This document shows, one piece after another, positions 1 through 56,158 of a DNA stretch of 64,000 bases. The first letter of the stretch is position 1. Each line of letters begins with the position of its first letter. This stretch comes from an uncultured virus (IMG/VR IMGVR_UViG_3300017991_003073) (taxonomy: Duplodnaviria; Heunggongvirae; Uroviricota; Caudoviricetes). Location: the IMG/VR virus record IMGVR_UViG_3300017991_003073; one strand, given 5' to 3'. Below the pieces are notes generated by a model. The model was not told the DNA's origin. It worked only from the letters and a program-made list of their open reading frames with translations, and did no database searches. The position numbers and the translations under genes are program-made.

Positions 1-158
1 CTGGTCGTACTCGTCCCACCCGCATCGACGTTCTTCGGTACTTTCACGGGGAAGCCCACACTCCTCGCACTCGCTTCCAGCGGGGCTGACCTCCCCATCG
101 GGGGACACTTCCCAATCCCCATCCCCGCCTTGCGGCGGGGATTCCAGGTGCGAAACTA

Positions 159-398
159 CTACTTGATGCGGACATGCCCCTCCCACGCGGGGACCAGGGC
201 GTCTACCTGGTCCCCGCACCCGTCGAATTGAATCGAAACCACCGTGTCGGCGTCGATCACCATCACGGCTTTGTTGAGGTCGTCCGGCAGGGACGCCTCA
301 TCGGGCGTCCCCAAGATATCGACCGGGTGGGACGCCCCTGGGGCGTCGTCGCCCTCGAACCAGTACCAGCGGCGGCGGACAAGGGTGGAATTGGACAT
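159..398 (-). CDS. hypothetical protein (79 aa)
   Basis: ORF track; lies in a run of small acidic minus-strand ORFs. Confidence 0.55.
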   Translation of the reverse strand: MSNSTLVRRRWYWFEGDDAPGASHPVDILGTPDEASLPDDLNKAVMVIDADTVVSIQFDGCGDQVDALVPAWEGHVRIK

Positions 399-493
399 GA
401 TAGTGCCTTTCAGGCTGCGGGGCTGGCCCCTAGGGAAAACGAACGAACAGATAGAAGCCTCCGGGCGGGGCTTGTAGTTAATGGAGGGTAGAC

Positions 494-736
494 CTAGGAA
501 AACTCTACATCCGAGATTTCATCACCCAGGAGGGGCGATCCGTTCCAGGGATCGAAATCGCTTTCCGGGTCTGGATCCTCGTACAGCGTGTACGATGGCG
601 TGTCGAACGGGCTGCTGCGGTCTACCACACGCTCCACGATCCCCGCGTCCGGGGCGTAGGCGTATGACACCACTTGTATCTGTCCCTGGCACTCGGGTGG
701 GACATGGAAGGTCAGTTCAGAGATATCGATTTTCAT
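494..736 (-). CDS. hypothetical protein (80 aa)
   Basis: ORF with purine-rich RBS (GAAGGGGAAG); acidic, protein-like composition. Confidence 0.7.
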   Translation of the reverse strand: MKIDISELTFHVPPECQGQIQVVSYAYAPDAGIVERVVDRSSPFDTPSYTLYEDPDPESDFDPWNGSPLLGDEISDVEFS

Positions 737-754
737 CGTCTTCCCCCTTCAGGA

Positions 755-1366
755 TTAAGGTTGCCGATGCGCTTCCTGGTCAGGCCAGGATTGCAGCCGA
801 TCCGGGTGAGGCGGCGTATGCGGGTTGCGTTTCGCGAGGCACAACCTACAGAAGTAGGCCCCAAAATCGCCCGGAACCTCTACCCAGTAGACTTCGTCCT
901 CATCATAGGGGACGGCGTGATGCAGCGTCCGGGTTGTTGTGCCACACCCTGCACAGGCGCTCACCGCCTGCGCCTTCAGAACCGGGCAACAGCAAGAGCC
1001 GAACGTCGCAGTGCAAGGCCCCCAAGCAACGTGTGTGCGGACCATCTCTCCGAGAGCGATCTCACGGCCACAGGCCTCGCAAAGAGTTGTGTCGCCGTCT
1101 TCGTGTTGCTCCAGCCTCTCGATGATGCCGATCTCCTCTACTTCTAGCGATTCGGTATCGCTAAGCAGACTGTGGGACCTCTCCGTACTGTCGAGATCCT
1201 CTTCGATCTCTGCGTAGAGAAGGTCGCAGTCCTTGTAAGCGGCTTGAAAAGCCTCCCAGGTGAGGAACCGCTGGTCTTCTACCTTCGCCTCGGAAATGTC
1301 GATCTCACCGGTAGCACACCGAACCCCAGAACGCAGGGTTACATGTAAGGCATTGTTTGGTTGCAT
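755..1366 (-). CDS. hypothetical protein with Cys-rich Zn-binding motifs
   Basis: CEAC, CAGC and CRLC pairs; GGAG upstream of ATG. Confidence 0.7.
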   Translation of the reverse strand: MQPNNALHVTLRSGVRCATGEIDISEAKVEDQRFLTWEAFQAAYKDCDLLYAEIEEDLDSTERSHSLLSDTESLEVEEIGIIERLEQHEDGDTTLCEACGREIALGEMVRTHVAWGPCTATFGSCCCPVLKAQAVSACAGCGTTTRTLHHAVPYDEDEVYWVEVPGDFGAYFCRLCLAKRNPHTPPHPDRLQSWPDQEAHRQP

Positions 1367-1384
1367 AGTTGGTTCTCTCCATCC

Positions 1385-1792
1385 TTATCCGAGAAGGATT
1401 TGTGCGGCCTTCAAAACACCGGCTCTGGCGATCTCTTCCGAGGTCATCTTGGCCCCTACTGGATCCCAGGATTCGTCGTTCTCCCAATCCCAGCCCAGGT
1501 TGTGATGGAGGATTTCGAAGATGCGGTTCTCCGCGTCACAAGCATCGTCATCGGCCTCCACTTCGCTAGCCAACTGGAGGATGGCCCCAAGGATCAGGTA
1601 GGGATTCTCCGGCTTACGCTGCGAGGCCCAATCGTGACGATAGGTCGCCAACGACGGGGCGTGGATCTCTGCGAGGCAGTGTTCGCACCGCCAGACGATC
1701 CATTGGCAGTCTCCGCTTGTGTAACGGCCCACCTCTTTGCAGACGCCGTTGCACTCAGATTCGACAAGGTGGTTATGGGTAACGTCGCTCAT
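1385..1792 (-). CDS. hypothetical protein (start re-chosen at MSDVTHNHL)
   Basis: Part of ORF 1385..1912. The ATG at 1792 follows the conserved leader element. Contains CEHC. Confidence 0.65.
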   Translation of the reverse strand: MSDVTHNHLVESECNGVCKEVGRYTSGDCQWIVWRCEHCLAEIHAPSLATYRHDWASQRKPENPYLILGAILQLASEVEADDDACDAENRIFEILHHNLGWDWENDESWDPVGAKMTSEEIARAGVLKAAQILLG

Positions 1793-1794
1793 AC

Positions 1795-1857
1795 CGCATC
1801 TTTCGTTGCTCCCTAAACCGGCCTCCGGGTCACTGGGGAGCATCAGGCTCCGGAGGC
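1795..1857 (-). ncRNA. putative structured cis-regulatory RNA leader (pseudoknot), copy 1
   Basis: Stem GCCUCCGG/CCGGAGGC; loop GCUCCC is complementary to downstream GGGAGC; homologous to 2106..2170. Confidence 0.55.
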
Positions 1858-1925
1858 TTACGCAACTGCGTAGAAAACGCAGTGTCCCCGACCTTCGCCC
1901 TCCGGAGACCATAAGGGACTTATAG

Positions 1926-2105
1926 CTACAGCCACTCCGGCGGGACGCGCTTCATGCGAGCCACACGGGCTTCGTAGCACTCCAGGCAGAGGAAGGTACC
2001 TTCCCAGCATTCCCAATCGTCGGACGCACCATCCGCACCGCAGTCTTCGCAGCGGTGCGTTTCCGTCTGGGCCTTCAACACCAGCTTCGGCATTGCCGTT
2101 TCCAT
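1926..2105 (-). CDS. small Zn-finger protein (59 aa, below the ORF-track cutoff)
   Basis: Manual translation METAMPKLVLKAQTETHRCEDCG...FLCLECYEARVARMKRVPPEWL; RBS GAGGAG. Confidence 0.75.
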   Translation of the reverse strand: METAMPKLVLKAQTETHRCEDCGADGASDDWECWEGTFLCLECYEARVARMKRVPPEWL

Positions 2106-2170
2106 CGCATCTCTCCTCGTTGCGCCCTTGTGGGCCTTCGGAGTCGCTGGGGCGCTCAGGCATCCGAAGG
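2106..2170 (-). ncRNA. putative structured cis-regulatory RNA leader (pseudoknot), copy 2
   Basis: Stem CCUUCGGA/UCCGAAGG; loop GCGCCC is complementary to downstream GGGCGC; compensatory changes versus copy 1. Confidence 0.55.
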
Positions 2171-2190
2171 TCGAGCCAATCGGCTCACCC

Positions 2191-2207
2191 TATATAGTGG
2201 TGTATCC
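2191..2207 (-). promoter_or_regulatory. shared promoter-like motif TAC(A/G)(C/T)CACTATA
   Basis: Minus strand GGATACACCACTATATA; recurs upstream of at least 7 genes. Confidence 0.6.
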
Positions 2208-2261
2208 GCAGACTCCTGACAGGATCGACGTTTTTCTCAGATTTTTTTTTCTCTGGCTCTG

Positions 2262-2843
2262 CTAGGCCCCAACAGGAGGGGCCTTCGCAAGGTCTAGGGC
2301 CTCCAGCACGTCCCACAGGCTGGATTCCTCTTCGTAGGCTAGGGACAGCGCAGCCTCGAAGTCCCTTGTCGAAGAGGAACAGAGCCCCCTCTGGACGATA
2401 TCTGCCAAAGCCTCCGGATCTCGGTCGAAGCAGTCCGGCCCCATAACACACGCCAGCACAACTACGACGGTACTCCGACCTACCATGATCGGTCCCAGGT
2501 TCGCTTGGAGGATCGTCTTCCAACCCAAACGGCTAGCGGCTTCTGCGACGACCTCCGTGGCGACTTCGCGCTTGCCCCGGATCTCTGGGTGATACCAGTA
2601 GACCAGTGCCTCCATGAGCGGCCTCAGGTCGGAAGGTGTCCCCCGGAACACCGACCGGTCACGGCAGTTCAGTACGTTGGTGCGGACCTGAATCTCTGTA
2701 GGCGACGTGATGGACGGAGTCCCTCCATACCCCAGTTCATACACCACCATCTGGAGAACGGCATCGAAAGGTGTTTCCTCCCGCGACACCATCAGTTCCT
2801 CGGGACCGCCGTTGGAACGGAAATACTGTACAGTAACGGACAT
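2262..2843 (-). CDS. hypothetical protein (193 aa)
   Basis: ORF track; tiles the minus-strand cluster. Confidence 0.75.
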   Translation of the reverse strand: MSVTVQYFRSNGGPEELMVSREETPFDAVLQMVVYELGYGGTPSITSPTEIQVRTNVLNCRDRSVFRGTPSDLRPLMEALVYWYHPEIRGKREVATEVVAEAASRLGWKTILQANLGPIMVGRSTVVVVLACVMGPDCFDRDPEALADIVQRGLCSSSTRDFEAALSLAYEEESSLWDVLEALDLAKAPPVGA

Positions 2844-2879
2844 CAGCGACTCTTCAGGTAGAGGAGTTGAACAGGGAAG

Positions 2880-3182
2880 CTACTCATACGAGTGCGAAGT
2901 CTCTTGCCCGGAGAGGAGGCGCACGAGATCTTCCTGGTACTCCCGCATTTCCAGGAGGACACGCTGCGCGGCCTCTGCCGTCTCCCGTACCTCGGGATCT
3001 TCCGAGGCCTGGAGAGTGGCCCTAACAGACTCCCACTCCAAGGTAAGCACCTCGAAGAACCGAGTCTTGGCTTTGTCGATAGCATCACAGATCGCCAAGG
3101 ACCTTGCCGCGTTCTGCTGGTCCTTGAGTGCTACGGGCATGATGTCGATCACCCGCGTATCGCCGTTTCCGTTGTCGCTCAT
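2880..3182 (-). CDS. hypothetical helical protein (start re-chosen at MSDNGNG)
   Basis: Part of ORF 2880..3260; GGAG upstream of the ATG at 3182; promoter motif at 3236. Confidence 0.7.
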   Translation of the reverse strand: MSDNGNGDTRVIDIMPVALKDQQNAARSLAICDAIDKAKTRFFEVLTLEWESVRATLQASEDPEVRETAEAAQRVLLEMREYQEDLVRLLSGQETSHSYE

Positions 3183-3235
3183 GGGTAGGGCTCCATGTTC
3201 GAGGACTCGCGCCGAGGAAGTCCCGGCGCACCCTC

Positions 3236-3260
3236 TATATAGTGACGTATCCTCGGACAT
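3236..3260 (-). promoter_or_regulatory. shared promoter-like motif
   Basis: Minus strand ATGTCCGAGGATACGTCACTATATA; nearly identical to 5737..5760. Confidence 0.6.
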
Positions 3261-3292
3261 CTGCCCAATCGCGCACTTTTTCTTTCGAGCCC

Positions 3293-3703
3293 CTACGATC
3301 TTGGTCCGTTGATACAGACAGCAAGCTGCTCCTCGGAGATCACCCCACTAGAAAACAACGCAGTGTATCGCTCTACTGCGTTCACCCACCGGACCGCACA
3401 CTCGTCTCGTAGCCGTCCCGCTGCTTTCCAACCGATAACGTGGTACACCAGCATTGCACTGGTGAGGATCAAAGCCGGGAGCCTCAGAGCAACCCCTGAC
3501 ACAGATCCTGCAAACATCACCACGGACCACAAGTTGTAAGCCGATAAAGCACCGAAGAGCCCAACGAATATCATTGCAGAGGACCGGCTTTTTGTGAGCC
3601 GTACCATCAGGTGCCGGAGCATAAACGGCTGTTGGAATTGAGTATCCCGAACCAGCTTCGCAAGGCCTTCCAGCCGCGCATGTCGCAAGAACCAGCGAAC
3701 CAT
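3293..3703 (-). CDS. hypothetical membrane protein
   Basis: Two hydrophobic segments (AMIFVGLFGALSAYNLWSVVMFA; LPALILTSAMLVYHVIGW). Confidence 0.7.
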   Translation of the reverse strand: MVRWFLRHARLEGLAKLVRDTQFQQPFMLRHLMVRLTKSRSSAMIFVGLFGALSAYNLWSVVMFAGSVSGVALRLPALILTSAMLVYHVIGWKAAGRLRDECAVRWVNAVERYTALFSSGVISEEQLAVCINGPRS

Positions 3704-3715
3704 CCGCCCCTCCCG

Positions 3716-3913
3716 TTAGTAGTTCGGCATGAAGTAGAACCGGAAACCGTTACGTCGAAGGGCGCTGAAGTCTCTGGCCACCTCTTCTCCGAATGCCTCC
3801 CCTAAAAGGCTAGGGTCAATGGAAGCTGCTTTGGTTTGGGTGATCTGATGTCCCCAACTCACTTTCGAAGGTTTCGAGAGCCTCCCGTAGGGTGGCGATT
3901 TCACGGAGGCCAT
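3716..3913 (-). CDS. hypothetical protein (65 aa)
   Basis: ORF track; promoter motif at 3978..3992 upstream. Confidence 0.55.
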   Translation of the reverse strand: MASVKSPPYGRLSKPSKVSWGHQITQTKAASIDPSLLGEAFGEEVARDFSALRRNGFRFYFMPNY

Positions 3914-4020
3914 AGGTGTATACCGTGGAGTCGATAAAACAAGAGGGGCCGAGACTACTGGTCCTTCCGAGAAGGTCGTATAGTGGTGTAGCTCAGATGG
4001 ATCCTGACCTGGAGGATACT

Positions 4021-4485
4021 ATGGAAGAGCGTAAGGCCTTTGTGGATGTCATTGCCATCCTGCGGACTCTGAACCTCGTTTACCACCACGCCCATATCCA
4101 AGCGGATGGCCCGAACTTCGCTGGGGACCACGCCTTGCTCCAGAGGCTTTACCTGGGGGAAGGTGAAGACAACTGCTGCGGCCCAATCCTGGAGATCGAT
4201 GGTGTGATGGAACGGTTGCAGGGTATCTACCCTGAACACCCCTTGGCCCCTCGGGAAGTAGCAGAGGGCGTGAATGCCACTATCGGCAAACGCAAGTTCG
4301 GGGCTGGCGTCGAGAGCTACCTTCGCTTCCTGCTGGGCCTTGAACTTAGGTTGCAGGAGCGGCTCGGGGAGGCGATTCGCCTTTTCGAGCAGGAGGTCCC
4401 CAACCCCGGCGTAGCGAACCTCTTCCAGACCCTTGCGGACAACCATCAGGTGAACCTCTACCTCCTCCAACAGAGGCTGACCTAG
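4021..4485 (+). CDS. Dps/ferritin-like four-helix protein
   Basis: YHHAHIQADGPNFAGDHALLQRLY and IDGVMER resemble the Dps HW..G..F...H..F..LY and D..AER motifs; GGAGG at 4011. Confidence 0.75.
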   Translation: MEERKAFVDVIAILRTLNLVYHHAHIQADGPNFAGDHALLQRLYLGEGEDNCCGPILEIDGVMERLQGIYPEHPLAPREVAEGVNATIGKRKFGAGVESYLRFLLGLELRLQERLGEAIRLFEQEVPNPGVANLFQTLADNHQVNLYLLQQRLT

Positions 4486-5468
4486 AGGTCGAGGCGGATC
4501 ACCCGGTCGATGAACGCACCGTCAGTGCCCCGGTAGTGAGGCGCAATCCAGATCCACTTGCGGAGGCTGTGCTTCGGGCCGTGGGCTTGGCTCCGATAGT
4601 GCCCTCGAACGCGGACACGGTGGTCTAGTTTACGGCCTGCGCGGCGTTCCCTTTCCGCTACCTCTTCGTGGGAGAGGTACCGAGTACGAGATCCCAGGTG
4701 GACATAGTTGAGCCACCGAGGAGGCCTCTCTTTCTTCCCCTTCTTCTTCGGAGGCTTCTGAAAGTCCGTACGGACCGCGTCTACCTTCTCACCGGTTGTG
4801 AGGTAGACCAAGAGCGTCTGGAGGAGAGCGCGTCTTGCCTCTACCTCTTCCATCTCGCTCGGGGTACTGAAAGCTGGGGCATCACCGTCGAGCGATCCGT
4901 ACCACGATTCGTAGTAGAAACCGTCGTCACGAGGGGAGGGCCTCCGCCCTCGCTGAGCCATCTGCTCGAACACCTTGCGCCGGGATCCAGTGCCAGTGGC
5001 GAACTGGTGCCAGAGAACCAAGTCCGGGCGCTGCATATCCATCCACACAGGCATCCGCGACCACTTCTCCACAGCCGTTGGCGGGAAGTACTCTACGGTC
5101 CATAGAACGAACCGCTGGTAGGTAGCGGCGTACGTCTCCTCACCGTTGGGCCAACGAACCAGGATAGCCCCTTCCGGTAGCATGAGATCGCAGTCGTCCA
5201 ATCCGCGTGGAGGCTCCGTTTCAAGCATGGCCTGGTAAAGGGCATCGGCCACGACATACCGAGCCACCGGCAGATCCTGAGTCCCGCGAAACGCTCCGCA
5301 TGAGATGAACGTGTTCAGCATCGCGAGGTTCGTGTTTACGGCCCGATGCGGATCCTCGGTTTCGTAAGCCGCGTGGTGAACGGCCAGCTGCTGCTCGACG
5401 GACTGTCCAGCGAAAGCGGCCTCTAACCGTTCGTGTAGGAACCGGATTGGTTGCTGCTTGCTGCCCAT
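4482..5468 (-). CDS. conserved phage protein with basic C-terminal VRGHxRxQxxG...WIxPHxxG motif
   Basis: HRVRVRGHYRSQAHGPKHSLRKWIWIAPHYRG; RBS AGGAG. Confidence 0.75.
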   Translation of the reverse strand: MGSKQQPIRFLHERLEAAFAGQSVEQQLAVHHAAYETEDPHRAVNTNLAMLNTFISCGAFRGTQDLPVARYVVADALYQAMLETEPPRGLDDCDLMLPEGAILVRWPNGEETYAATYQRFVLWTVEYFPPTAVEKWSRMPVWMDMQRPDLVLWHQFATGTGSRRKVFEQMAQRGRRPSPRDDGFYYESWYGSLDGDAPAFSTPSEMEEVEARRALLQTLLVYLTTGEKVDAVRTDFQKPPKKKGKKERPPRWLNYVHLGSRTRYLSHEEVAERERRAGRKLDHRVRVRGHYRSQAHGPKHSLRKWIWIAPHYRGTDGAFIDRVIRLDL

Positions 5469-5477
5469 ATACTGCTC

Positions 5478-5688
5478 CTACCGTGCTGGGATGACACCCA
5501 CATCATCCGTGACAAGGGCCAACTGATCGTTGGTCCACATCACGTCCTGGTTCAATGCTTCCAAATGGACCTCGAAATGGTCTTCCCTACACTCTGTGAC
5601 CTTGGGCTCCTGCGGGAGCCACAAAATGAGGGAATCGCTCTACGGCGCGTTTGAGGTAGATACGCTCACCTACGGGCGGATGATCCAT
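5478..5688 (-). pseudogene. small gene apparently broken by a 1-nt frameshift
   Basis: MDHPPVGERIYLKRAVERFPHFVAPAGA... in one frame. ...VTECREDHFEVHLEALNQDV...IPAR* in the next frame ends right at the RBS of the downstream gene. Confidence 0.5.
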
Positions 5689-5736
5689 GTCCTTTTTCTC
5701 CAGGTAAGGCCAACCGATACAGGATCGGTACTCTCT

Positions 5737-5760
5737 GTATAGTGGTGTATCCTCGGACAT
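5737..5760 (-). promoter_or_regulatory. shared promoter-like motif
   Basis: Minus strand ATGTCCGAGGATACACCACTATAC. Confidence 0.6.
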
Positions 5761-5787
5761 TTAGCTATTCCAGCGCAAAATCCTCAT

Positions 5788-5830
5788 AAAAAAAAGGGAG
5801 ACCCGGAACCGAATGGCTCCGGGCCTCCCC
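5788..5830 (-). terminator. rho-independent terminator
   Basis: GC hairpin (GGGAGGCCCGGAGCC...GGUUCCGGGUCUCCC) followed by U8 on the minus strand. Confidence 0.8.
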
Positions 5831-5861
5831 CGCTCTGGCCGACATGGTGGCGGGTCGGCAG

Positions 5862-6581
5862 CTAGAAGGGCGGATCCTCGTCCCCGTCCTCAGCGAACAC
5901 CTCCAGGCCTTCCCCTTCAGCAGGAGCGGCCTCGGCCTTCTCGGAGGGCGCGGGCTTCGGCTTCGCGGGCTCTTTGTCCGTCACACCGGGGATATACAGG
6001 TCCCCGAGATCCGGCAGATCCCCGATGATCTCGTCTCCGATGGCTTCGTTACGGGTGGACTGTCCGTACTGCTCGATGGCGTCCTTGATAGGCTTGCCCA
6101 TCCACTCCTCGGGTTCCATCCCGATTTCCTTCGGAGGGAAGGCAATCCCTGCGTCGGGGCTCACCAACTGCCCGAAACCGCCCGGTTCGTCCGGTGGTGC
6201 GAAGCAGATGTTGAAAGCCTTGCCCACGAGGTACTTCTCAATGGCATTCACCACCGCCTCGCGTTTCTTGTCGTCCTCGAACTGGGCAGCAGCCTTGCGG
6301 ACGATCACGTAGAGATCGTCCCGTAGCTTGCGCCAGCTTTCGTCGCCTGCCTTCCGAGCCGTGAGGTAGTTGTACACAGCCATCGGGCTCTTGATGATGG
6401 CGACGAGGAGATGGAGGCCACCGGAGAAGTACTTGTCCCCCGTCGAGGTGCGTTCATTTACGAAGCACCCCCACGACAGCACGTCCCCCACCTCGTCCAC
6501 GAAACGAAGGCGGATGAACGGGATCTTCTTCTCGCGGCTGACCTCGACACTCGCGGCAACACAAAGTGCGACCCGCCACAT
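5862..6581 (-). CDS. putative single-stranded DNA-binding protein
   Basis: Beta-rich N-terminus, flexible Pro/Ala/Glu linker and acidic tail ending EDGDEDPPF (compare the SSB tail DDDIPF); has its own promoter motif and terminator. Confidence 0.5.
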   Translation of the reverse strand: MWRVALCVAASVEVSREKKIPFIRLRFVDEVGDVLSWGCFVNERTSTGDKYFSGGLHLLVAIIKSPMAVYNYLTARKAGDESWRKLRDDLYVIVRKAAAQFEDDKKREAVVNAIEKYLVGKAFNICFAPPDEPGGFGQLVSPDAGIAFPPKEIGMEPEEWMGKPIKDAIEQYGQSTRNEAIGDEIIGDLPDLGDLYIPGVTDKEPAKPKPAPSEKAEAAPAEGEGLEVFAEDGDEDPPF

Positions 6582-6780: not shown

Positions 6781-9096
6781 CTACTCGAAGTCATCGAAAA
6801 GACCAGGGAAGTTGCTTCCTTCCTTCGGTCCCGCCGTTGTTGGGCGGCGGCGAGGTGTAGGCACCTCGAAAGGATCATCCTCGTCTTCGTCCCACGGCAA
6901 GGTGGGGTGGACAGCCGCAGGGGCAGATCTTCTACGGGTACGAGGTTTGGGCTTCGCCGTGGCTCCCTTGCGTTTCGCAATGCCCCTCGGGCGCGTACCC
7001 TTCTTCCGCCGATACCCGGACACCGTCTCAGCACCCAGAGCCTGCACGACGCGAGCGTCGATCTCGTAGTCGAAGATTTCGTTGCTAGAGAGCCATCCCA
7101 AAGCGAGGTCGAGGCCCGCTTCGATGGCATCCTCCTCGGTTGTATAAGGCCCATCGTCCGAGACGAGGGAGTCCACGAACGCCCCAGTAGTAGAGTCGAT
7201 GATCGCGCTCAAGTAGTACCCATCCGGTCCGAGGACGACGGAGTAGTACACCACGTCATCTTCATCCCCTACGGAGTAGGCTTCGTCCACATCCACTTCC
7301 GCAATCACTGCCGGACCCGCAGCCGTAGCTGGGGTGTAGGCCGGACATGGAGCCTGGGACACGCCCTCCAAGTCGAGACCAGCGCACCGCACGTCCGCTT
7401 CCTGAGGTGTACGGCCTCCGGCTTTGACGATCTCACTGCTGAGGATGTTCTGCTGGATGGTCCGCACGACGGCGTACCATTCCCCTTCCGCTTTCCCGTC
7501 CTCACCTGTCCGCTTCATGCGGTGCTTGCCCTCGGTGATGAAAGGTTGGAGACGAGCAAGCGAAGCCTTCTTGATTGAGGCCTTGGCGGAGAGAGGGTAT
7601 TGGATGGCAGCCAATTCCTCGGCGCGATCCATAGCGAGATCAGCGATGTGCCGACGCGCCTCATAGTACCGGTCGTTGCTGGCGTGAAGCCAACCGGCCA
7701 GCGTCTCGTATCCACAGCCTTCGTTCCATCCCCCAGGAGGCAGTGCCCCCACGGTATCGAAGGCCTGGGTGAAGTCCCTGGATCCACGTACAGGCTGCCC
7801 GTCCTCGAATACATCGACGCTAACGCGAGGTATCCTCCGGCCTACCGAGCCATTGTCGATCTTCTCGACCTCATCACGGCCAATAGCCTTGCCGGGGTAC
7901 TGGTCCCATTCCACATAAACGAGTCGCTTAGCCGGGTCTGGGTAGATCGACCGGCCTCTGGCACCTGCGATGGCCCGTACGATGCCCTCCGCCCCTTCAG
8001 GGATCCCGCTCAGGATCATCGCCGCTGGACTCACCACCCTTACTCGATCCCCCTCTTTGAAAGACTTTCCGCTTACCGTTTTCTTACCCTTCGCCTTCTT
8101 CGACTTCGCCTTCTTCTTCTTACCCATGGGACCGCTGACCGTATCGATCTCCTCCTCAGGGATGGTCCCGTCTTCGATGTTCTCCTGCAACGCTTCGCGG
8201 AGGTCGTCAGTGGACTCCGAGTCGTAGACTGCGAAACCCCACCGCTCCAGGATTTCCTGGATCTCGGCTCGGTCTAGCCAGTTGAGGCGGGAGGCGAGCG
8301 TCCCTCCGGACACCGTCTTCTTGCCCTTCTTCGTGGCTCCAGGCCGTCTGCCCTTCTTGCGCTTCACCTTCTTGGTGGAAACCGTTCCTGTAGCCTTCGA
8401 GGCCTTCTTCGCCTTCGCCTTCTTCTTCGTCCTGGGCTTTGCGCTGGCAGTCTTCTTGGCAGTGGACTTCTTCTTCTTCCTGGCTTTAGCCTTAGCCTTC
8501 GGCTTCGTCTTGCCCGAGGAGAAAGCCTCGTCACCTTCGGTCATCACACGATTGACCGCTTCCCAAGAGAACTCCACCGACTCCCCTGGATCCTCCAGCT
8601 GCGAGACATGAGCGAAGCCCTGCTTGCGCCCCTGGATCTTCGCCGGAACCCCATCGAGGGTACATTCGGCTCCGGCCCAAAGGTCCGCAAGTTTCTCCTT
8701 CGCGGTCTTCGGCTTCGCTGCTCCGGTGGTTTTGGCTCTGGTTTTGGGCTTGGGCTTAGCTTTGGGCTTGGAGCCCCCACTATTCTTCGGCTTCGCCTTC
8801 TTCTTGGGCTTGTTGCCTTTGACCGTCGCGGGCACCGAAGCCAGCTTCGTCCGCGTAGCTACCACGGGACTGCTCTTCTTCCACGCCCCCCGGATCTGTG
8901 TGTCGGTCATAGGCGACTTGGCCCACACCAAGAACCGCCCGTCCGGACCCCCCGCATCGGACACCACCGCCCGGACGTAGAAATGAGGATAGTCCGGCAG
9001 CTTCTGGGCGCTCTTGACCGCCGTGACCTCACGAGCCAACGCAGCTGCCGTACTGCGGTCGTGCCGCCCTGGGATGTAGTGGGTCCAAATCTTCAT
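6781..9096 (-). CDS. Lys-rich multidomain protein, putative virion polyprotein (771 aa)
   Basis: H1-like K/A/P tracts alternate with small globular domains, including an SH3/KOW-like FKEGDRVRV...VYVEWD. TVSG occurs 4 times, with related motifs at junctions. Confidence 0.85.
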   Translation of the reverse strand: MKIWTHYIPGRHDRSTAAALAREVTAVKSAQKLPDYPHFYVRAVVSDAGGPDGRFLVWAKSPMTDTQIRGAWKKSSPVVATRTKLASVPATVKGNKPKKKAKPKNSGGSKPKAKPKPKTRAKTTGAAKPKTAKEKLADLWAGAECTLDGVPAKIQGRKQGFAHVSQLEDPGESVEFSWEAVNRVMTEGDEAFSSGKTKPKAKAKARKKKKSTAKKTASAKPRTKKKAKAKKASKATGTVSTKKVKRKKGRRPGATKKGKKTVSGGTLASRLNWLDRAEIQEILERWGFAVYDSESTDDLREALQENIEDGTIPEEEIDTVSGPMGKKKKAKSKKAKGKKTVSGKSFKEGDRVRVVSPAAMILSGIPEGAEGIVRAIAGARGRSIYPDPAKRLVYVEWDQYPGKAIGRDEVEKIDNGSVGRRIPRVSVDVFEDGQPVRGSRDFTQAFDTVGALPPGGWNEGCGYETLAGWLHASNDRYYEARRHIADLAMDRAEELAAIQYPLSAKASIKKASLARLQPFITEGKHRMKRTGEDGKAEGEWYAVVRTIQQNILSSEIVKAGGRTPQEADVRCAGLDLEGVSQAPCPAYTPATAAGPAVIAEVDVDEAYSVGDEDDVVYYSVVLGPDGYYLSAIIDSTTGAFVDSLVSDDGPYTTEEDAIEAGLDLALGWLSSNEIFDYEIDARVVQALGAETVSGYRRKKGTRPRGIAKRKGATAKPKPRTRRRSAPAAVHPTLPWDEDEDDPFEVPTPRRRPTTAGPKEGSNFPGLFDDFE

Positions 9097-31604: not shown

Positions 31605-31727
31605 CAACGATCTTGCCCACGGGCGGAGTCCCTGGATGAACCTTGTTGGTAGATTCCGGGTTTGGAGGCCATAAATCGCGTACCGGGGGATTTTACTCCA
31701 ACCGCCCGTGGGCTCCCACTTTCAGCT

Positions 31728-32444
31728 ATGGGGAAAAACATGGACCGCATCGACCCGATCTCGATCATGCTCGAACTGGGGGCTTTGCAACTGGGTACGT
31801 TCACCCTCAAATCCGGAAGGGAGTCGCCCTACTTCTTCAACATCGGAGAGGTGAACGAAGGGCGGGGGATGGTGACCCTTGCCAACCTCTTTGCGGTTTC
31901 GATTCGGCGGCTCGTGGTCGCGAAGACGGATCCTAAGATGCAGGAGCCTTCGATCATCTTCGGGCCTGCGTACAAGGGCATCCCCTTGGCCGTGGCAACG
32001 GCGATGGCTCTGGCTGAGGATGCGCCTTTCCATCGGTGGCAGAATACCATTCGGTGGTCCTCCGACCGGAAGGAGGAGAAGAAGCACGGAGAGAAGGCGA
32101 AGTTCCTCGGGGCGACTCCGACTGCGGACGATGTGGTGGTCATCGTGGATGATGTCATCACGACGGGGCAGACCAAGATCGAGGCCCTCCAGAAGGTCAC
32201 GGATACTGGGGCTACGGTGGCTGGCGTGGTGGTGGCCCTCGACCGGATGGAGCGGGGTGGCGACGAGAAGGACGCTGTCCAGGACTTCGAAACGGCGACG
32301 GGTGTTCCGGTCTTCTCCCTCGCTACGGTGAAGGATCTTGCGGCTCTTCTGGAGGAGCAGAATCCCGATAGCTACAAGGCCTTACAAGACTACCTCATGC
32401 GATTCGGCTCGAAGCGTTTCTTCGATCTAGACAGCGCCACTTAA
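31728..32444 (+). CDS. pyrE: orotate phosphoribosyltransferase
   Basis: GTFTLKSGRESPYFFN, FGPAYKGIPLA, RKEEKKHGE and PRPP motif VIVDDVITTG; start uncertain. Confidence 0.95.
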   Translation: MGKNMDRIDPISIMLELGALQLGTFTLKSGRESPYFFNIGEVNEGRGMVTLANLFAVSIRRLVVAKTDPKMQEPSIIFGPAYKGIPLAVATAMALAEDAPFHRWQNTIRWSSDRKEEKKHGEKAKFLGATPTADDVVVIVDDVITTGQTKIEALQKVTDTGATVAGVVVALDRMERGGDEKDAVQDFETATGVPVFSLATVKDLAALLEEQNPDSYKALQDYLMRFGSKRFFDLDSAT

Positions 32445-32471
32445 CGGATCGGCAGCGCAGTACCCCTGGTT

Positions 32472-32505
32472 GAGGGCGGGTCGCGAGGCTCGCCCTCGTT
32501 GTTTT
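32472..32505 (+). terminator. terminator-like hairpin between pyrE and pyrF
   Basis: GAGGGCGGG...CTCGCCCTC followed by GTTGTTTT. Confidence 0.5.
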
Positions 32506-32518
32506 AAGGAGGAATGGG

Positions 32519-33274
32519 ATGGACCTGAAGAACAGAATCGTCGTTGCCTTGGATGGGATCTCGGCGGCGGCTGCGGCAAAGCTGGTGACTCTGCTGAGCC
32601 CTCTCGTTTGGGGGTTCAAGATGAACGACTTGTTCCTTGATCCCCTGGGGCCTGCACTAGCCAGGATCATCGTCCAGTCGAAGGCGAAGCTGTGGCTTGA
32701 TCTGAAGCTACATGACATCCCGAACACCGTTAAGAACCAGCTGAATCGGCTCGCGAACTACATGCCTTCACTGGTGACGGTACACGCATCAGGAGGGATC
32801 GGGATGCTTACGGCGGCTTGCGAAGCGGCTCGGGACACCCGAAAGAGTCTGCATTACACGGATGTTGGGGAAGTTCCGGAGTTAGGGATCCTGGCTGTAT
32901 CGGTGCTGACCTCCCTGAGCGCCGAGGAATGCGAGAAGATCTACGGCAGCGTCCCTGCGGAGAAGGTTCCGATGTTCGCTACCTTGGCAAGGGATGCGGG
33001 TGTTTGGGGTGCGGTCTGCTCAGGGCACGAGGCTCGACAGGTGCGGGATCTAGGCCTACGGCCTGTCGTCCCAGGGATCCGCCCAGAGTGGTTCCTCGCG
33101 GAACAGAACGTGTCTCAGGACGATCAGAAGCGGGTGGTGACCCCGTGTAAGGCCTTGGACTTCGGGGCGGAACTGCTGGTCATCGGAAGGCCTATCGTGA
33201 AGAGCGAGGACCCGCTAGTGGCCGTGGAGCGGACGATCTCCGAACTGGAGGACAACTACGGCGTTGCCGACTGA
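32519..33274 (+). CDS. pyrF: orotidine-5'-phosphate decarboxylase
   Basis: IVVALD, LDLKLHDIPNTV, TVHASGG, VLTS, PGIRP, DDQKRVVTP and VIGRPI. Confidence 0.96.
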   Translation: MDLKNRIVVALDGISAAAAAKLVTLLSPLVWGFKMNDLFLDPLGPALARIIVQSKAKLWLDLKLHDIPNTVKNQLNRLANYMPSLVTVHASGGIGMLTAACEAARDTRKSLHYTDVGEVPELGILAVSVLTSLSAEECEKIYGSVPAEKVPMFATLARDAGVWGAVCSGHEARQVRDLGLRPVVPGIRPEWFLAEQNVSQDDQKRVVTPCKALDFGAELLVIGRPIVKSEDPLVAVERTISELEDNYGVAD

Positions 33275-47829: not shown

Positions 47830-47928
47830 CGCTCCCGGTGGATGCCCCCTTCAGTCTAGCCCACACCTTCCCTGAGGGCTAAGATCGCATTGCTATCGCT
47901 AGTGTGTAACGCTGCACGGAGAAAAGGG

Positions 47929-49122
47929 ATGCCCTTGCTCTACCTCGACAATAACGCCACCACCCGCGTCGATGATCGCGTGGTGCGGGCCATGATCCCG
48001 TACTTCACTGAGATCTATGGGAACCCTTCGTCTGCTCACTACCTGGGATCCCTTGCCAAGGAAGGTGTGGAGCGGGCGCGGAAAGCTGTGGCTAGCTTCC
48101 TCGGATGCTTTCCGGAGGAGGTGACGTTCACGTCAGGAGGAACCGAAGGCGACAACGCAGTCCTGCACAGCGTCAAGGTTTGCCAGCCCCAACGGCGTCA
48201 CATCGTAGTCTCGTCTTTGGAACACCCTGCCGTCGCCCGGAAAACGGAGTGTATGTGTCACTTCGATGGCTTCGAAGCTACTCCGGTAGAACCCAACCGA
48301 CGTGGGGTCATCACGCCTGAGGCGATACAGAAGGCCATGCGCCCGAACACGGCGCTGGTGTCGGTGATGCTCGCCAACAACGAGACCGGCGTGGTCAACC
48401 CTGTAGCAGACATTGCAAAGGTGGCCAAAACAGGAGGAGCCCTCCTGCATGTTGATGGTACCCAGGCTGTGGGTAAGATCCCGATCAACTTCCGAAAGCT
48501 AGGGGCCGACTACTTCGTCTTCGCAGGCCACAAGTTCCACGGACTGAAGGGGGTTGGGGCAGTCCTTGTGAAGCGTGGCGTGTGCTTCAGTCCGTTGATG
48601 GTAGGAGGCTCACAGGAGGGCAACCGGCGCGGTGGCACCGAGAACGTCCCTGGCATCGTAGGCCTGGGAGCCGCGTGTGGGTTCGGGGAAGAGGCGCTGC
48701 CGGTGATGGCTTCACAAGTGCGGGCGCTTCGGGATGCGCTCCAGGAGGAGATCGTCCAGACCTTCCGCGACGGGGTCTTCGTTGTGGGCGATCTCGCTCC
48801 CCGGACTCCGAACACACTGCTGCTCGCCTTCAAGAACACCCACGGTAGGTTGGTGCAGGACTACCTGAGCGAGCGAGGTGTGTGCGTTGGCACTGGGTCC
48901 GCGTGTTCCTGCCTCGCGGCGATGTCACCATCCGCCACAGTCAAGGCGATGGGCGTCCCCGAACCCTACCGTATGGGCATTGTCCGGATCAGCCTCTCGA
49001 AGTACCAATCCCCTGCGTATGGCGGAAACCCTGCGGATCTTGGGGTGGTGGTCCAACTACTGAAGCGGGCGCGTCTCGACGGGGCGCTCGGAGCCTGGGC
49101 TCCGGAAAAGGCGATGCGATAG
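47929..49122 (+). CDS. iscS: cysteine desulfurase (IscS/NifS group I, PLP-dependent)
   Basis: YLDNNATT, YGNPSS, FTSGGTE, EHPAV, MLANNETG, HVDGTQAVGK, GHKFHG, RGGTENV and catalytic GSAC. Confidence 0.93.
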   Translation: MPLLYLDNNATTRVDDRVVRAMIPYFTEIYGNPSSAHYLGSLAKEGVERARKAVASFLGCFPEEVTFTSGGTEGDNAVLHSVKVCQPQRRHIVVSSLEHPAVARKTECMCHFDGFEATPVEPNRRGVITPEAIQKAMRPNTALVSVMLANNETGVVNPVADIAKVAKTGGALLHVDGTQAVGKIPINFRKLGADYFVFAGHKFHGLKGVGAVLVKRGVCFSPLMVGGSQEGNRRGGTENVPGIVGLGAACGFGEEALPVMASQVRALRDALQEEIVQTFRDGVFVVGDLAPRTPNTLLLAFKNTHGRLVQDYLSERGVCVGTGSACSCLAAMSPSATVKAMGVPEPYRMGIVRISLSKYQSPAYGGNPADLGVVVQLLKRARLDGALGAWAPEKAMR

Positions 49123-53896: not shown

Positions 53897-55300
53897 TCAC
53901 GAAAGCCGCTCAGAAAAAATCTTTGTCGATACCTGGGGCTCAACTCCTGCCAGGATTTTCCTCAGCCCTTGGCAGAATACCCCCTGAACCAGGGAGGTTT
54001 CAGAAGGGTCCATGTCCAGTAACACCTCGTCGTGAGCCAGTAGTACCGGCTTCCAGGCCCGGTTTTTCTGGATGAGATCGAGACACCCTACGACCACCGA
54101 GTCGATGACCGGTGCTTGGAGATGGACCGCTGCAATGGATCGGCCCGTCCCTTTTCCCTTCCAACGCCTTCCGTGGTACGAGACCGCAGGCCGTTGGGCA
54201 CCTGCTTGGAGGTCGAGATCACGACGCCACCGATCCAAGGGGAACCGCTTGACCAAGGTGCGATAGATCTGACCTTCTTGGGAAGGACCGAGGCCTACCG
54301 CATCCCGGAGTCCTTCCTGCACTTTCTGATGCGTAGCGAGGTAGGCATACTGGAAGAACATCGCCTTGGTCACCTCTCGCGAAGGTTCGGCCCCAGCTAC
54401 CGACTGAATGATCTCGGTATTCTCTGCGTGTACGTCTCTACCTTCATGGAGCATGTCCCATAGCACCCTTCCACGCTCGTCTTCGGGGTACCTATGCTTC
54501 CACGCTAAAGCCAGTGAACACACCTCTGCGCCTCGGAGGTCTAGACTAACGAAGCTGTTACCTTCCGAAGGTATCAGCAATCCACGCGGTGCCTCTGGGT
54601 CGTTGCTGTGGTCGAACCCCTGCACCTGTGGATTCTCGGCCATCAGCCGTGCCGTCCCCAACCGCCGGTACGTTGGATGGATCCGACCATCATTTCGCAA
54701 AGCCTCAGCTACAGCCTCACGAGATCTGGTCCACCGTGTGGGAGCCCCTCCTGTTGGGGCCATCCGTAGTCGTGTGATGTCTACTGCAACCCCGTTCCAC
54801 GTTACTTGGAGAGCGATGGCGTTGCCTAGGGTCTCCAAGGGGAGTGCGTAGGGGTACACCTTACGAGCAAGGGACGTGGCCTCGTGCTTCACTGGAGTGT
54901 AGGCCCGGACCCGTGCGAACATGCCTTCCCCTGCGGATAGGGTTTTGGCTGGATCGAGGTATAGCTTCTGGGTGATGATATTTGGATTGACCGGGGCTGC
55001 TAAGCGGTTCAAGTCTTCGAGCGAGACGACGTTCCCGGTGCGTAGATGGTCAAGTAGGGCCGGAAGACATGGTAGGTCGTGCCAGAGGGCAACGGCGATC
55101 ACCTTTGCCCAGTCGAGCGTAAACAAGAGGGGGGATCTCTCTCGGAGTTGCGTGGCTAGGGTGTTGAGCCCTCTCACCCCAGCGTAGCGACGTGTCCCTT
55201 TACAGGAATGAACCCGTATCCCTGCGACAACTTCGGGGGCCGGTGGTAGACTCCAATCGTGCGGATCGAACTCAACTATGGCAGCAGCTGTATGACTCAT
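53897..55300 (-). CDS. family A DNA polymerase-like protein, short and divergent
   Basis: DGRIHPTY, GTARLMAENPQVQ, motif A SLDLRGAEV, DVHAENT, motif B REVTKAMFFQYAY and motif C LAHDEV. Confidence 0.85.
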   Translation of the reverse strand: MSHTAAAIVEFDPHDWSLPPAPEVVAGIRVHSCKGTRRYAGVRGLNTLATQLRERSPLLFTLDWAKVIAVALWHDLPCLPALLDHLRTGNVVSLEDLNRLAAPVNPNIITQKLYLDPAKTLSAGEGMFARVRAYTPVKHEATSLARKVYPYALPLETLGNAIALQVTWNGVAVDITRLRMAPTGGAPTRWTRSREAVAEALRNDGRIHPTYRRLGTARLMAENPQVQGFDHSNDPEAPRGLLIPSEGNSFVSLDLRGAEVCSLALAWKHRYPEDERGRVLWDMLHEGRDVHAENTEIIQSVAGAEPSREVTKAMFFQYAYLATHQKVQEGLRDAVGLGPSQEGQIYRTLVKRFPLDRWRRDLDLQAGAQRPAVSYHGRRWKGKGTGRSIAAVHLQAPVIDSVVVGCLDLIQKNRAWKPVLLAHDEVLLDMDPSETSLVQGVFCQGLRKILAGVEPQVSTKIFSERLS

Positions 55301-56158
55301 AAGCGCGAACACACGAAGGATGAGGTCCGGAAATGCTTGCGGGTTCTCGGTGCTGAGAAGGCCGGGGACTTAGATCAAGTGAAGTACGCCTATCGTGTGC
55401 TTGCGAAGCAGTACCACCCTGATCGGTCGAAGGCAGCGGATGCAGAAGAGAGGTTCAAGGAAATCAACGAAGCGCACCGAGTGGTGTTAGAGTGGGTAAG
55501 AGAACAGGGTGGGGAATTGCCTTTGGAGGAACCAGAACGCGATATCTTCGATTGGGGAGAGGGGGCGGAGAGGGATTTCATTCGAGATCTAGTGGGGCGG
55601 GGACGAGGGCGAGTGTCGTCTCGGAAGAAGGTTGTGCAGGTGGATCTCCAAGACATCTTCGGGGAGTTCGTCGCAGGGGCTGTGTTCTTGGGAGGGGTCC
55701 TTTTCAAGAACGTGGTCCAGGAAGTTCGGCGTTCTGCGGAAGTGCGTCCGGTTGGGGTACCACCGAAGTCGAGTCCTATGAACTCTGCGAAGATCGAACC
55801 TAAAGGTAAACGACCGCATCCTGTTGGGCGTGTGGGTAGAAGTGGTGTGAATGGTGATGCGGCGGTAGGTCCCGTTCCCGCAGCAGCTGTTCGTAACAGG
55901 CAGCATCAACAACGGCCCTCTGCTGGTGTCCGCTTGCACCCGGTCTACCCGGCCTTTCGTGTTAAGGCCCAGGAGTACCGGCAGTTTGTGAAACGGATCC
56001 AGGAGAACCGTTTGGTAGAGTCCTCGATCCAGGGTGAGATCTGGACCCTGGACGGCAAGAAATCTATGGGCGGCACCTTCCAGGCTAGTCTAGCGCCCAA
56101 TGGGCAGATCCTGTATATTCACGGCAGTCCGTATCAGATAAAGGTTGTCCCAGCATGA
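55292..56158 (+). CDS. DnaJ (J-domain) protein
   Basis: VKYAYRVLAKQYHPDRS...AEERFKEINEAHRV, with intact HPD. Confidence 0.9.
   Translation: MTHKREHTKDEVRKCLRVLGAEKAGDLDQVKYAYRVLAKQYHPDRSKAADAEERFKEINEAHRVVLEWVREQGGELPLEEPERDIFDWGEGAERDFIRDLVGRGRGRVSSRKKVVQVDLQDIFGEFVAGAVFLGGVLFKNVVQEVRRSAEVRPVGVPPKSSPMNSAKIEPKGKRPHPVGRVGRSGVNGDAAVGPVPAAAVRNRQHQQRPSAGVRLHPVYPAFRVKAQEYRQFVKRIQENRLVESSIQGEIWTLDGKKSMGGTFQASLAPNGQILYIHGSPYQIKVVPA

Follow-up and report, generated by a model that had tools for sequence, protein, structure and literature searches.

A compact pseudoknotted RNA leader precedes four unrelated orphan genes in one rare lineage of what looks like a large unclassified phage. Two copies of this leader, A and B, lie on the minus strand of the 64,000-nt stretch of DNA analysed here (the window), and two more, C and D, occur in the two close strains that, together with the window, make up the known range of the motif. 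Comparison of the copies shows that both predicted helices are kept while their sequences change freely, and this supports a covarying pseudoknotted RNA leader without a known class. The motif is a real and apparently undescribed RNA family of a broad, known kind, the pseudoknotted mRNA leader. As to its role, we tentatively prefer a cis-acting translation-initiation element, predicted to serve as a protein operator or as a 30S/S1 docking site.

The window encodes helicase, primase-type zinc finger, exonuclease, DNA polymerase A, class II ribonucleotide reductase and fibre-type domains along with many orphans; no capsid or terminase gene was identified in it, so that its phage nature is presumptive. 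Proteins identical to those of the window occur on contigs of up to 122 kb, and the 13 sequencing runs found for it were all DNA, from sediment, seawater or aquaculture metagenomes; six of these runs may be its source. The window also carries host-like metabolic genes on the plus strand (31662-33274, 47890-49122, 55259-56158 and 60646-63348): a phosphoribosyltransferase beside OMP decarboxylase, a class V aminotransferase (cysteine desulfurase-like), a DnaJ-domain gene and the class II ribonucleotide reductase. The motif itself sits among small, co-oriented orphan genes with a four-copy promoter-like box, a neighbourhood that would be typical of an early region.

The cores of copy A (1857-1807) and copy B (2170-2122) are both present in the window sequence and read as proposed in a preliminary description, that is, as a duplicated minus-strand leader; the core pattern matched twice in the window and never in 100 shuffles. 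In copy A, P1 (1857-1850/1828-1821) encloses AGC, P2 (CUG 1846-1844 / CAG 1835-1833) with the loop AUGCUCCC, and UGAC, and is followed by a 7-nt linker. The loop (1843-1836) pairs with the strand GGGAGCA at 1813-1807, so that the loop-to-tail pairing exists as described and, at 7 bp, is one pair longer than claimed. Copy B has the corresponding parts: P1 (2170-2163/2142-2135), UGC, P2, the loop AGCGCCC (2156-2150), CGAC, a 7-nt linker and the pairing strand GGGCGC (2127-2122). A relaxed descriptor and a covariance model yielded no third copy in the 64-kb window (next best score, 14 bits). A “decayed copy” at 454-396, plausible by eye, was rejected, since 1123 of 5000 shuffles were equally good. 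A read-through ORF across copy A (1912-1385) was also rejected; it is not conserved in one of the close strains (L159).

To find further copies we scanned metagenomes with a pattern that carried no constraint on P1 pairing. Three of the 42 loci recovered had an 8-bp P1 together with a 6-bp pseudoknot, and the other 39 had at most four consecutive P1 pairs; because this pattern needed GCAAC, which is absent in C and D, further copies may have been missed. A third contig (L164) equals the window where checked and was not counted as independent. The two informative strains, L145 and L159, are 99% and about 95% identical to the window, respectively, over shared stretches. L159 carries A, B and the new copy C (1333-1280, minus strand), which lies 17 nt past the stop codon of the A gene and precedes a gene of at least 421 aa that is missing from the window at that site. 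L145 carries A and the new copy D (1612-1562, minus strand) ahead of a 192-aa gene, on a segment replaced by other DNA in the window. The window has no copy at either site. Copy D was first selected by a structure descriptor, and a structure-free link to copy A is provided by blastn (78% identity over 68 nt, E 6e-8). Where L145 has copy D, the gene behind it and the 5' part of the gene after that, the window has a 79-aa ORF and a GC-rich hairpin (123-454, minus strand); this following gene is apparently truncated in the window.

The known copies vary little between strains. Copy A is unchanged in L145 and has one added base, at the unpaired 5' end of the loop, in L159; copy B is identical in L159. 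Contigs of the X12 run show the added loop base of A and a loose end resembling the start of C. The element AACGA, previously included in the motif, is common to A and B only; C and D do not have it, and we rejected it as a conserved element.

All four paralogues share one register, in the order 8-bp P1, W-G-C, CUG, loop, CAG, Y-G-W-C, P1', linker and pseudoknot strand. The loop (7-10 nt) starts with A, the linker (7-9 nt) ends in A, and the pseudoknot strand (6-8 nt) pairs with the 3' part of the loop, giving a core of 49-54 nt across copies. Stem 2 measures 7 bp in A, 6 bp in B, 8 bp in C and 6 bp in D. Loop 1 is 1 nt in A, B and D and 2 nt in C and in the L159 allele of A, with no base between the stems; this geometry is that of CPK1 as defined in the available text of PMC11262651, which is a structural class and not a function.

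Standard pairs occupy 32 of 32 P1 cells and 24 of 24 cells of the six core pseudoknot pairs. Copies A and D differ by five double and no single changes in 14 pairs. When 10 changes were placed at random, all pairs were kept in 112 of 400,000 trials (G-U allowed), and the analytic chance of five Watson-Crick doubles is about 6e-7. Between A and B, a conservative count gives two double changes, one in P1 and one in the pseudoknot, as well as a paired one-base shift (analytic chance of two such doubles, about 5e-4). Considering P1 and pseudoknot columns together, 9 of the 14 contain a double change and a tenth contains C-G to U-G. In copy C the pseudoknot is lengthened to 8 bp and a further pair has gone from U-A to G-C; C also carries one wobble, C-G to U-G. 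Over the whole alignment 95.5% of the cells are paired, a value reached by none of 500 shuffles, the sequences being related. In this alignment MAFFT mis-registered the pseudoknot of D (the three unpaired cells), and its register gives the P1 of B four doubles; the counts relied on here are those of the four-paralogue register and the conservative two doubles for A and B. The covariation of basal stem and loop-tail pairing first noticed between A and B is thus upheld, and it is stronger with four paralogues; lack of covariation in homologues had been named as one observation that would speak against the motif, and paralogues C and D keep both helices. The four natural variants amount to ready-made compensatory mutants of a compact fold that has no Rfam family.

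Folding energies were less distinctive. Hairpins range from -13 to -19 kcal/mol and pseudoknot duplexes from -10 to -16 kcal/mol, and single-sequence folding is only mildly better than that of shuffles (z -1.1 to -2.1); because these z-scores are unremarkable, the case is built on covariation and not on energy. In a pseudoknot-free model, in sequence context, P1 forms for A, B and D; for C the pair probability of P1 is 0.0 and the pseudoknot helix wins.

The bases invariant in all four paralogues are the central GC-CUG-A / CAG-Y-G-W-C zone and the last A of the linker, an invariance that is weakly tested because there are only four paralogues from one lineage. One way to draw the central bases is as a 5-bp helix from which W, Y and W, exactly the variable positions, protrude as three single-base bulges; this drawing is 1-1.3 kcal/mol better than an open loop. 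The linker would have to span about 13 bp with its 7-9 nt, so that the fold probably requires a bend at the internal loop or partial opening of P1.

Such a bend or opening would also be in keeping with the xrRNA-LT elements of plant viruses, and it could be speculated that the leader is a protein-independent roadblock to 5'-to-3' exoribonucleases. The pseudoknot and short linker would then ring the 5' strand, upstream RNA would be trimmed, and the outcome would be a stable monocistronic message with an intact RBS. The order of elements agrees with xrRNA-LT as given in the available text of PMC7668246 (P1, an internal loop with a conserved G, P2 and a loop-to-3'-tail pseudoknot); the topology and the conserved J1/2 G are both found here, the G of W-G-C being invariant in 4 of 4 paralogues. 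Like the dianthovirus and polerovirus elements, which can sit upstream of start codons, the leader is about 50 nt long; it ends just outside the RBS, and the hairpins that follow promoter-like boxes suggest that 5'-end protection matters in the region. However, according to the accessible parts of PMC7668246 and PMC6299227 the class needs L2B and AGY. L2B, between pseudoknot strand and P2, is absent here, since the strand abuts CAG in 4 of 4 copies, and the linkers end in UUA, CAA, UUA and UCA rather than AGY. P1 and the pseudoknot are longer than in xrRNA-LT, the latter measuring 6-8 bp as opposed to 4-5 bp. A 5' hairpin already stands before copy B, some 20 nt from the presumed start, a roadblock would depend on a putative RNase J in the host, and resistance is only predicted for this DNA phage-like element; no xrRNA in a DNA phage was found in the accessible parts of the literature searched. 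We therefore consider an exoribonuclease roadblock unlikely. If the leader were xrRNA-like, it would be the first natural exonuclease block in a DNA phage, with a topology convergent with that of plant-virus xrRNA-LT.

A second possibility that would need RNA alone is a new small self-cleaving ribozyme, predicted to cut an early polycistronic RNA and to leave a defined 5' end before each RBS. The size of 49-54 nt, the pseudoknot, the multi-copy intergenic placement within a phage-like genome and the invariant internal-loop zone are features typical of small ribozymes. RNA viruses with ribozymes just upstream of start codons have been reported as well (PMC13725137, available text). Nevertheless, the ribozyme models of Rfam, searched at E up to 10, overlap none of the copies, and the core patterns of hammerhead, twister, pistol and hairpin ribozymes are absent in 7 of 7 copies. 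HDV-like and theta ribozymes have a nested double pseudoknot, in which the 5' strand of P2 comes between P1 and P3, and a catalytic C in J4/2. A loose HDV-like J4/2 pattern matches only the two B copies, and the leader lacks this strand order: its pseudoknot strand is in the apical loop and there is one pseudoknot only. In addition, most of the invariant bases can be drawn as base pairs, and a ribozyme has no need of constant spacing to a start codon. We regard self-cleavage as rather unlikely.

Taken jointly, as a single predicted RNA-alone function, the two possibilities, an xrRNA-like block in a DNA phage and a self-cleaving ribozyme of about 50 nt that would form a new class, have an appreciable, though minority, chance of being correct. 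In that case the leader would act as a transferable unit that provides early-gene cassettes, as they are shuffled, with a 5' end that is defined and stable and lies by the RBS. Either activity, the blocking of RNase J or self-cleavage, would make it a phage RNA of a new kind, and synthetic biology could gain a candidate insulator part from it.

The position of the leader relative to its genes points in another direction. The distance from P1' to the predicted start codon is 28 nt in A and 29 nt in B, C and D (29 nt also in the L159 allele of A), taking the predicted starts and not the alternatives at +41 in B and +26 in C. This distance is constant even though linker, pseudoknot and spacer differ in length and sequence; the purine-rich spacer from pseudoknot to start is 14-16 nt. 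The element is in sense orientation in all four paralogues. In B, C and D the pseudoknot is followed by an SD after 0-4 nt. For the gene behind B this is the SD-like GAGGAG (2111-2118, minus strand), which comes directly 3' of the pseudoknot without overlapping it; the SD of A is weak. The preliminary description had placed the leader just before two RBS and start codons, and this holds for both start codons but not fully for the RBS, as A has only this weak SD outside the pseudoknot.

The upstream context, in contrast, varies freely: a promoter-like box about 20 nt away in B, a stop codon 17 nt away in C and a shared extension in A and D. It is because of the fixed start spacing, set against this varying context, that we prefer a translation-initiation role, and for the same reason, of the three roles suggested earlier, translational control through protein or ribosome binding is the best fit. 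The constant spacing could partly reflect common descent, or it could be the shortest distance at which a stable structure spares the RBS; read in either way it would fit the rival explanations too. For a translation-initiation element, the fold would border the 30S footprint on the 5' side, with the invariant bulged zone as a recognition surface. A putative phage or host protein, or S1/30S itself, would bind this zone, and binding would turn translation of unrelated early genes down or up together. The most likely direction, as a guess, would be coordinate shut-off of early genes by a bound protein.

The four downstream genes are unrelated orphans without a metabolic theme. Behind A is a 135-aa orphan (1385-1792, minus strand; ATG at 1792) whose product belongs to no family and has one relative, the L159 allele (90% identity). 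Behind B is a Cys-rich (CxxC...CxxC) orphan of 59 aa (1926-2105, minus strand; ATG at 2105), with only sub-threshold zinc-finger-type matches; in L159 it has 137 aa (1893-2306), the difference being an in-frame block of about 80 codons near the start. Short upstream ORFs start 21 nt past P1' in A (window 1799-1773, minus strand) and D. Those of L159 A (MRP) and L145 D (MEP) end in a stop that overlaps the main start codon, while the ORF of window A has 8 codons and no overlap; these short ORFs may be due to chance.

Precedents for an operator or initiation element exist. A pseudoknot in a phage mRNA leader acts as the gene 32 operator (PMC3014915, available text), the T2 version has CPK1 geometry (available text of PMC11262651), and in bacteria, too, initiation can be driven by leader pseudoknots (PMC11228461, available text). 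Like the T4 and T2 gene 32 elements, the leader described here is a phage leader pseudoknot with a loop 1 of 1-2 nt (A here) and a 6-7-bp stem 2 stacked on stem 1. In contrast, its stem 1 is long and interrupted, and it stands before four genes, none recognisable as SSB. The gene 32 operator also lies 67 nt upstream and has an A+U-rich tract, whereas the present element ends 14-16 nt before the start and has no such tract; by SSB gene, distance (~67 nt) and tract, it is not a gene 32 operator. The pseudoknots of tisB/timP and rpsO are likewise bacterial 5'UTR elements acting on initiation via S1/30S or a bound protein. They differ in being single-locus elements of other architecture that work through an occluded SD (tisB, timP) or autoregulation (rpsO), and the SD is open here in three of four copies. 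One point argues against the operator reading: known operator pseudoknots serve one cognate gene, and here there are four unrelated genes. A 2010 review considered the gene 32 pseudoknot possibly the only viral one in translational autoregulation (PMC3014915, available text). A multi-gene operator would extend translational control by pseudoknots to coordinate control of early genes.

A further reading is a metabolite- or ion-sensing riboswitch, in which a ligand would stabilise the pseudoknot and alter access to the RBS. The compact pseudoknot with its invariant internal-loop zone is of a suitable kind, a competing fold that pairs the SD is predicted for B, and in A the pseudoknot strand GGGAG could act as SD for the short upstream ORF. 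However, none of the other copies conserves this alternative fold of B, and we rejected an SD-sequestering switch for this reason. The riboswitch reading fits poorly because the genes are unrelated orphans with no metabolic theme, because no terminator-like site lies close by, and because three copies (B, C and D) have their SD beyond the pseudoknot. There was also no copy in 185,579 species genomes scanned with one pattern. Overall, ligand sensing is highly improbable.

Additional elements flank the copies. An extension of about 70 nt 5' of copy A (1859-1928, minus strand) contains a TARCTAYAAG box, overlapping dyads and a predicted 5-bp hairpin (1872-1859) abutting P1; by alignment it is common to A and D and is not shared by B or C. 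Its hairpin shows a U-A to C-G double change in L159. The TARCTAYAAG box, which with a hairpin opens the A/D-type extension, lies at window 1928-1919 and 480-471 (minus strand) and at L145 1676; at 480 the window retains the box, but the place of copy D in L145 is taken by another leader and gene.

About 20 nt upstream of B lies the promoter-like repeat GGATACACCACTATA (2193-2207, minus strand), for which there were six matches at three or fewer mismatches against 0.5 expected; its role as a promoter is presumed. The four-copy box (G)GATACACCACTATA, which is not of the sigma-70 type, occurs at 2193-2207, 3238-3252, 3979-3993 and 5738-5752 (minus strand), with a hairpin within about 10 nt 3' of it in three copies by folding and in the fourth by eye. 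Between the box and B is a 5-bp hairpin, GAGCC/GGCUC (2173-2186, minus strand). As similar hairpins follow other promoter-like boxes, we did not assign it to the motif; it is probably the 5'-terminal hairpin of the transcript. Positions 1-6500 contain no sigma-70-like site, and neither A nor B has a terminator-like site.

Another possibility is that the conserved element is DNA, or is passive: a single-stranded DNA fold or recombination substrate, PeSL- or attC-like, that travels with cassettes and in which the “compensation” would arise from inverted-repeat correction instead of selection on RNA. Template switching can homogenise inverted repeats such as P1, and DNA folding energies are alike on both strands. 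The genes behind copies C and D are strain-specific and belong to a hyper-variable region, a setting also described for PeSLs (PMC2839356, available text), and, like the PeSLs of the T4-type phages RB49 and phi1, the leader is repeated before orphan genes in a strain-variable early region. On the other hand, two crossed helices both covary, all four paralogues are sense-oriented at a fixed distance from the start codon, and the sole wobble, that of copy C, reads as G-U on the mRNA strand alone. PeSLs have a simple stem-loop and the element described here has a covarying pseudoknot, with no sigma-70 promoter or terminator inside. The attC core site GTTRRRY is absent on the sense strand from the surroundings of all 7 copies. 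Crossovers within flanking copies that add or remove genes, as in PeSLs, were not seen: in the only two events available, the strain junctions are outside the core, upstream of P1 by 17 nt for C and by 32 nt for D, and there is no chimeric copy. An explanation at the DNA level is thus very unlikely.

Searches for relatives and for an earlier description agree with the previous claim that the leader belongs to no known class. With Rfam 15 there was no match at the gathering score in the 64 kb, and no family overlaps A or B at E up to 10; L159 and L145 gave only opposite-strand, sub-threshold matches (PhotoRC-I, E 1.4; TBFV SL6, E 6.1). In viral contigs, successive core patterns gave at least 120, 3, 1, 6, 15 and 2 matches, and none of the matches listed has both helices. 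The scan of species genomes returned 14 loci that all fail P1, the best scoring 24 bits as compared to 62-81 bits for the training copies of the covariance model; three Bathyarchaeia loci among them are without both helices. As the pattern scans require the central bases to be kept, they do not show absence outside the lineage. By blastn, GenBank phages and plasmids gave short chance matches only. Searches via proteins found no related phage in the viral contigs and no close GenBank phage, and a 437-kb viral record with a weak 34-aa protein match has no copy by model search (best E 4.9). We found no description of the motif in the literature searched. PMC10690425 reports 10,000 viral candidate RNAs; four 10-11-nt core words are absent from seven of its supplement files, and a prior listing elsewhere in its supplement is possible.

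Further features of the early region were recorded. A strong terminator-like hairpin with a U-tract (5831-5794, minus strand), just upstream of the first promoter-like box, marks the start of the early block. A 771-aa orphan (6781-9096, minus strand) has no Pfam or PHROG family and combines long Lys/Ala-rich, histone-H1-like tracts with an acidic C-terminal part, and a 189-aa ORF (3916-4485, plus strand) has a weak ferritin-like match below the cut-off (E 0.007). About 2.3 kb upstream of the motif, in the same early region, lies a gene for a 328-aa AcrVA2-like protein (4482-5468, minus strand; PF26125), assigned by an Atlas feature score of 0.98 and by structure matches; a 48% relative (P0003) is encoded on metagenome contigs. 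AcrVA2 triggers translation-dependent destruction of mRNA, according to the available text of bioRxiv 10.1101/2022.11.29.518452.
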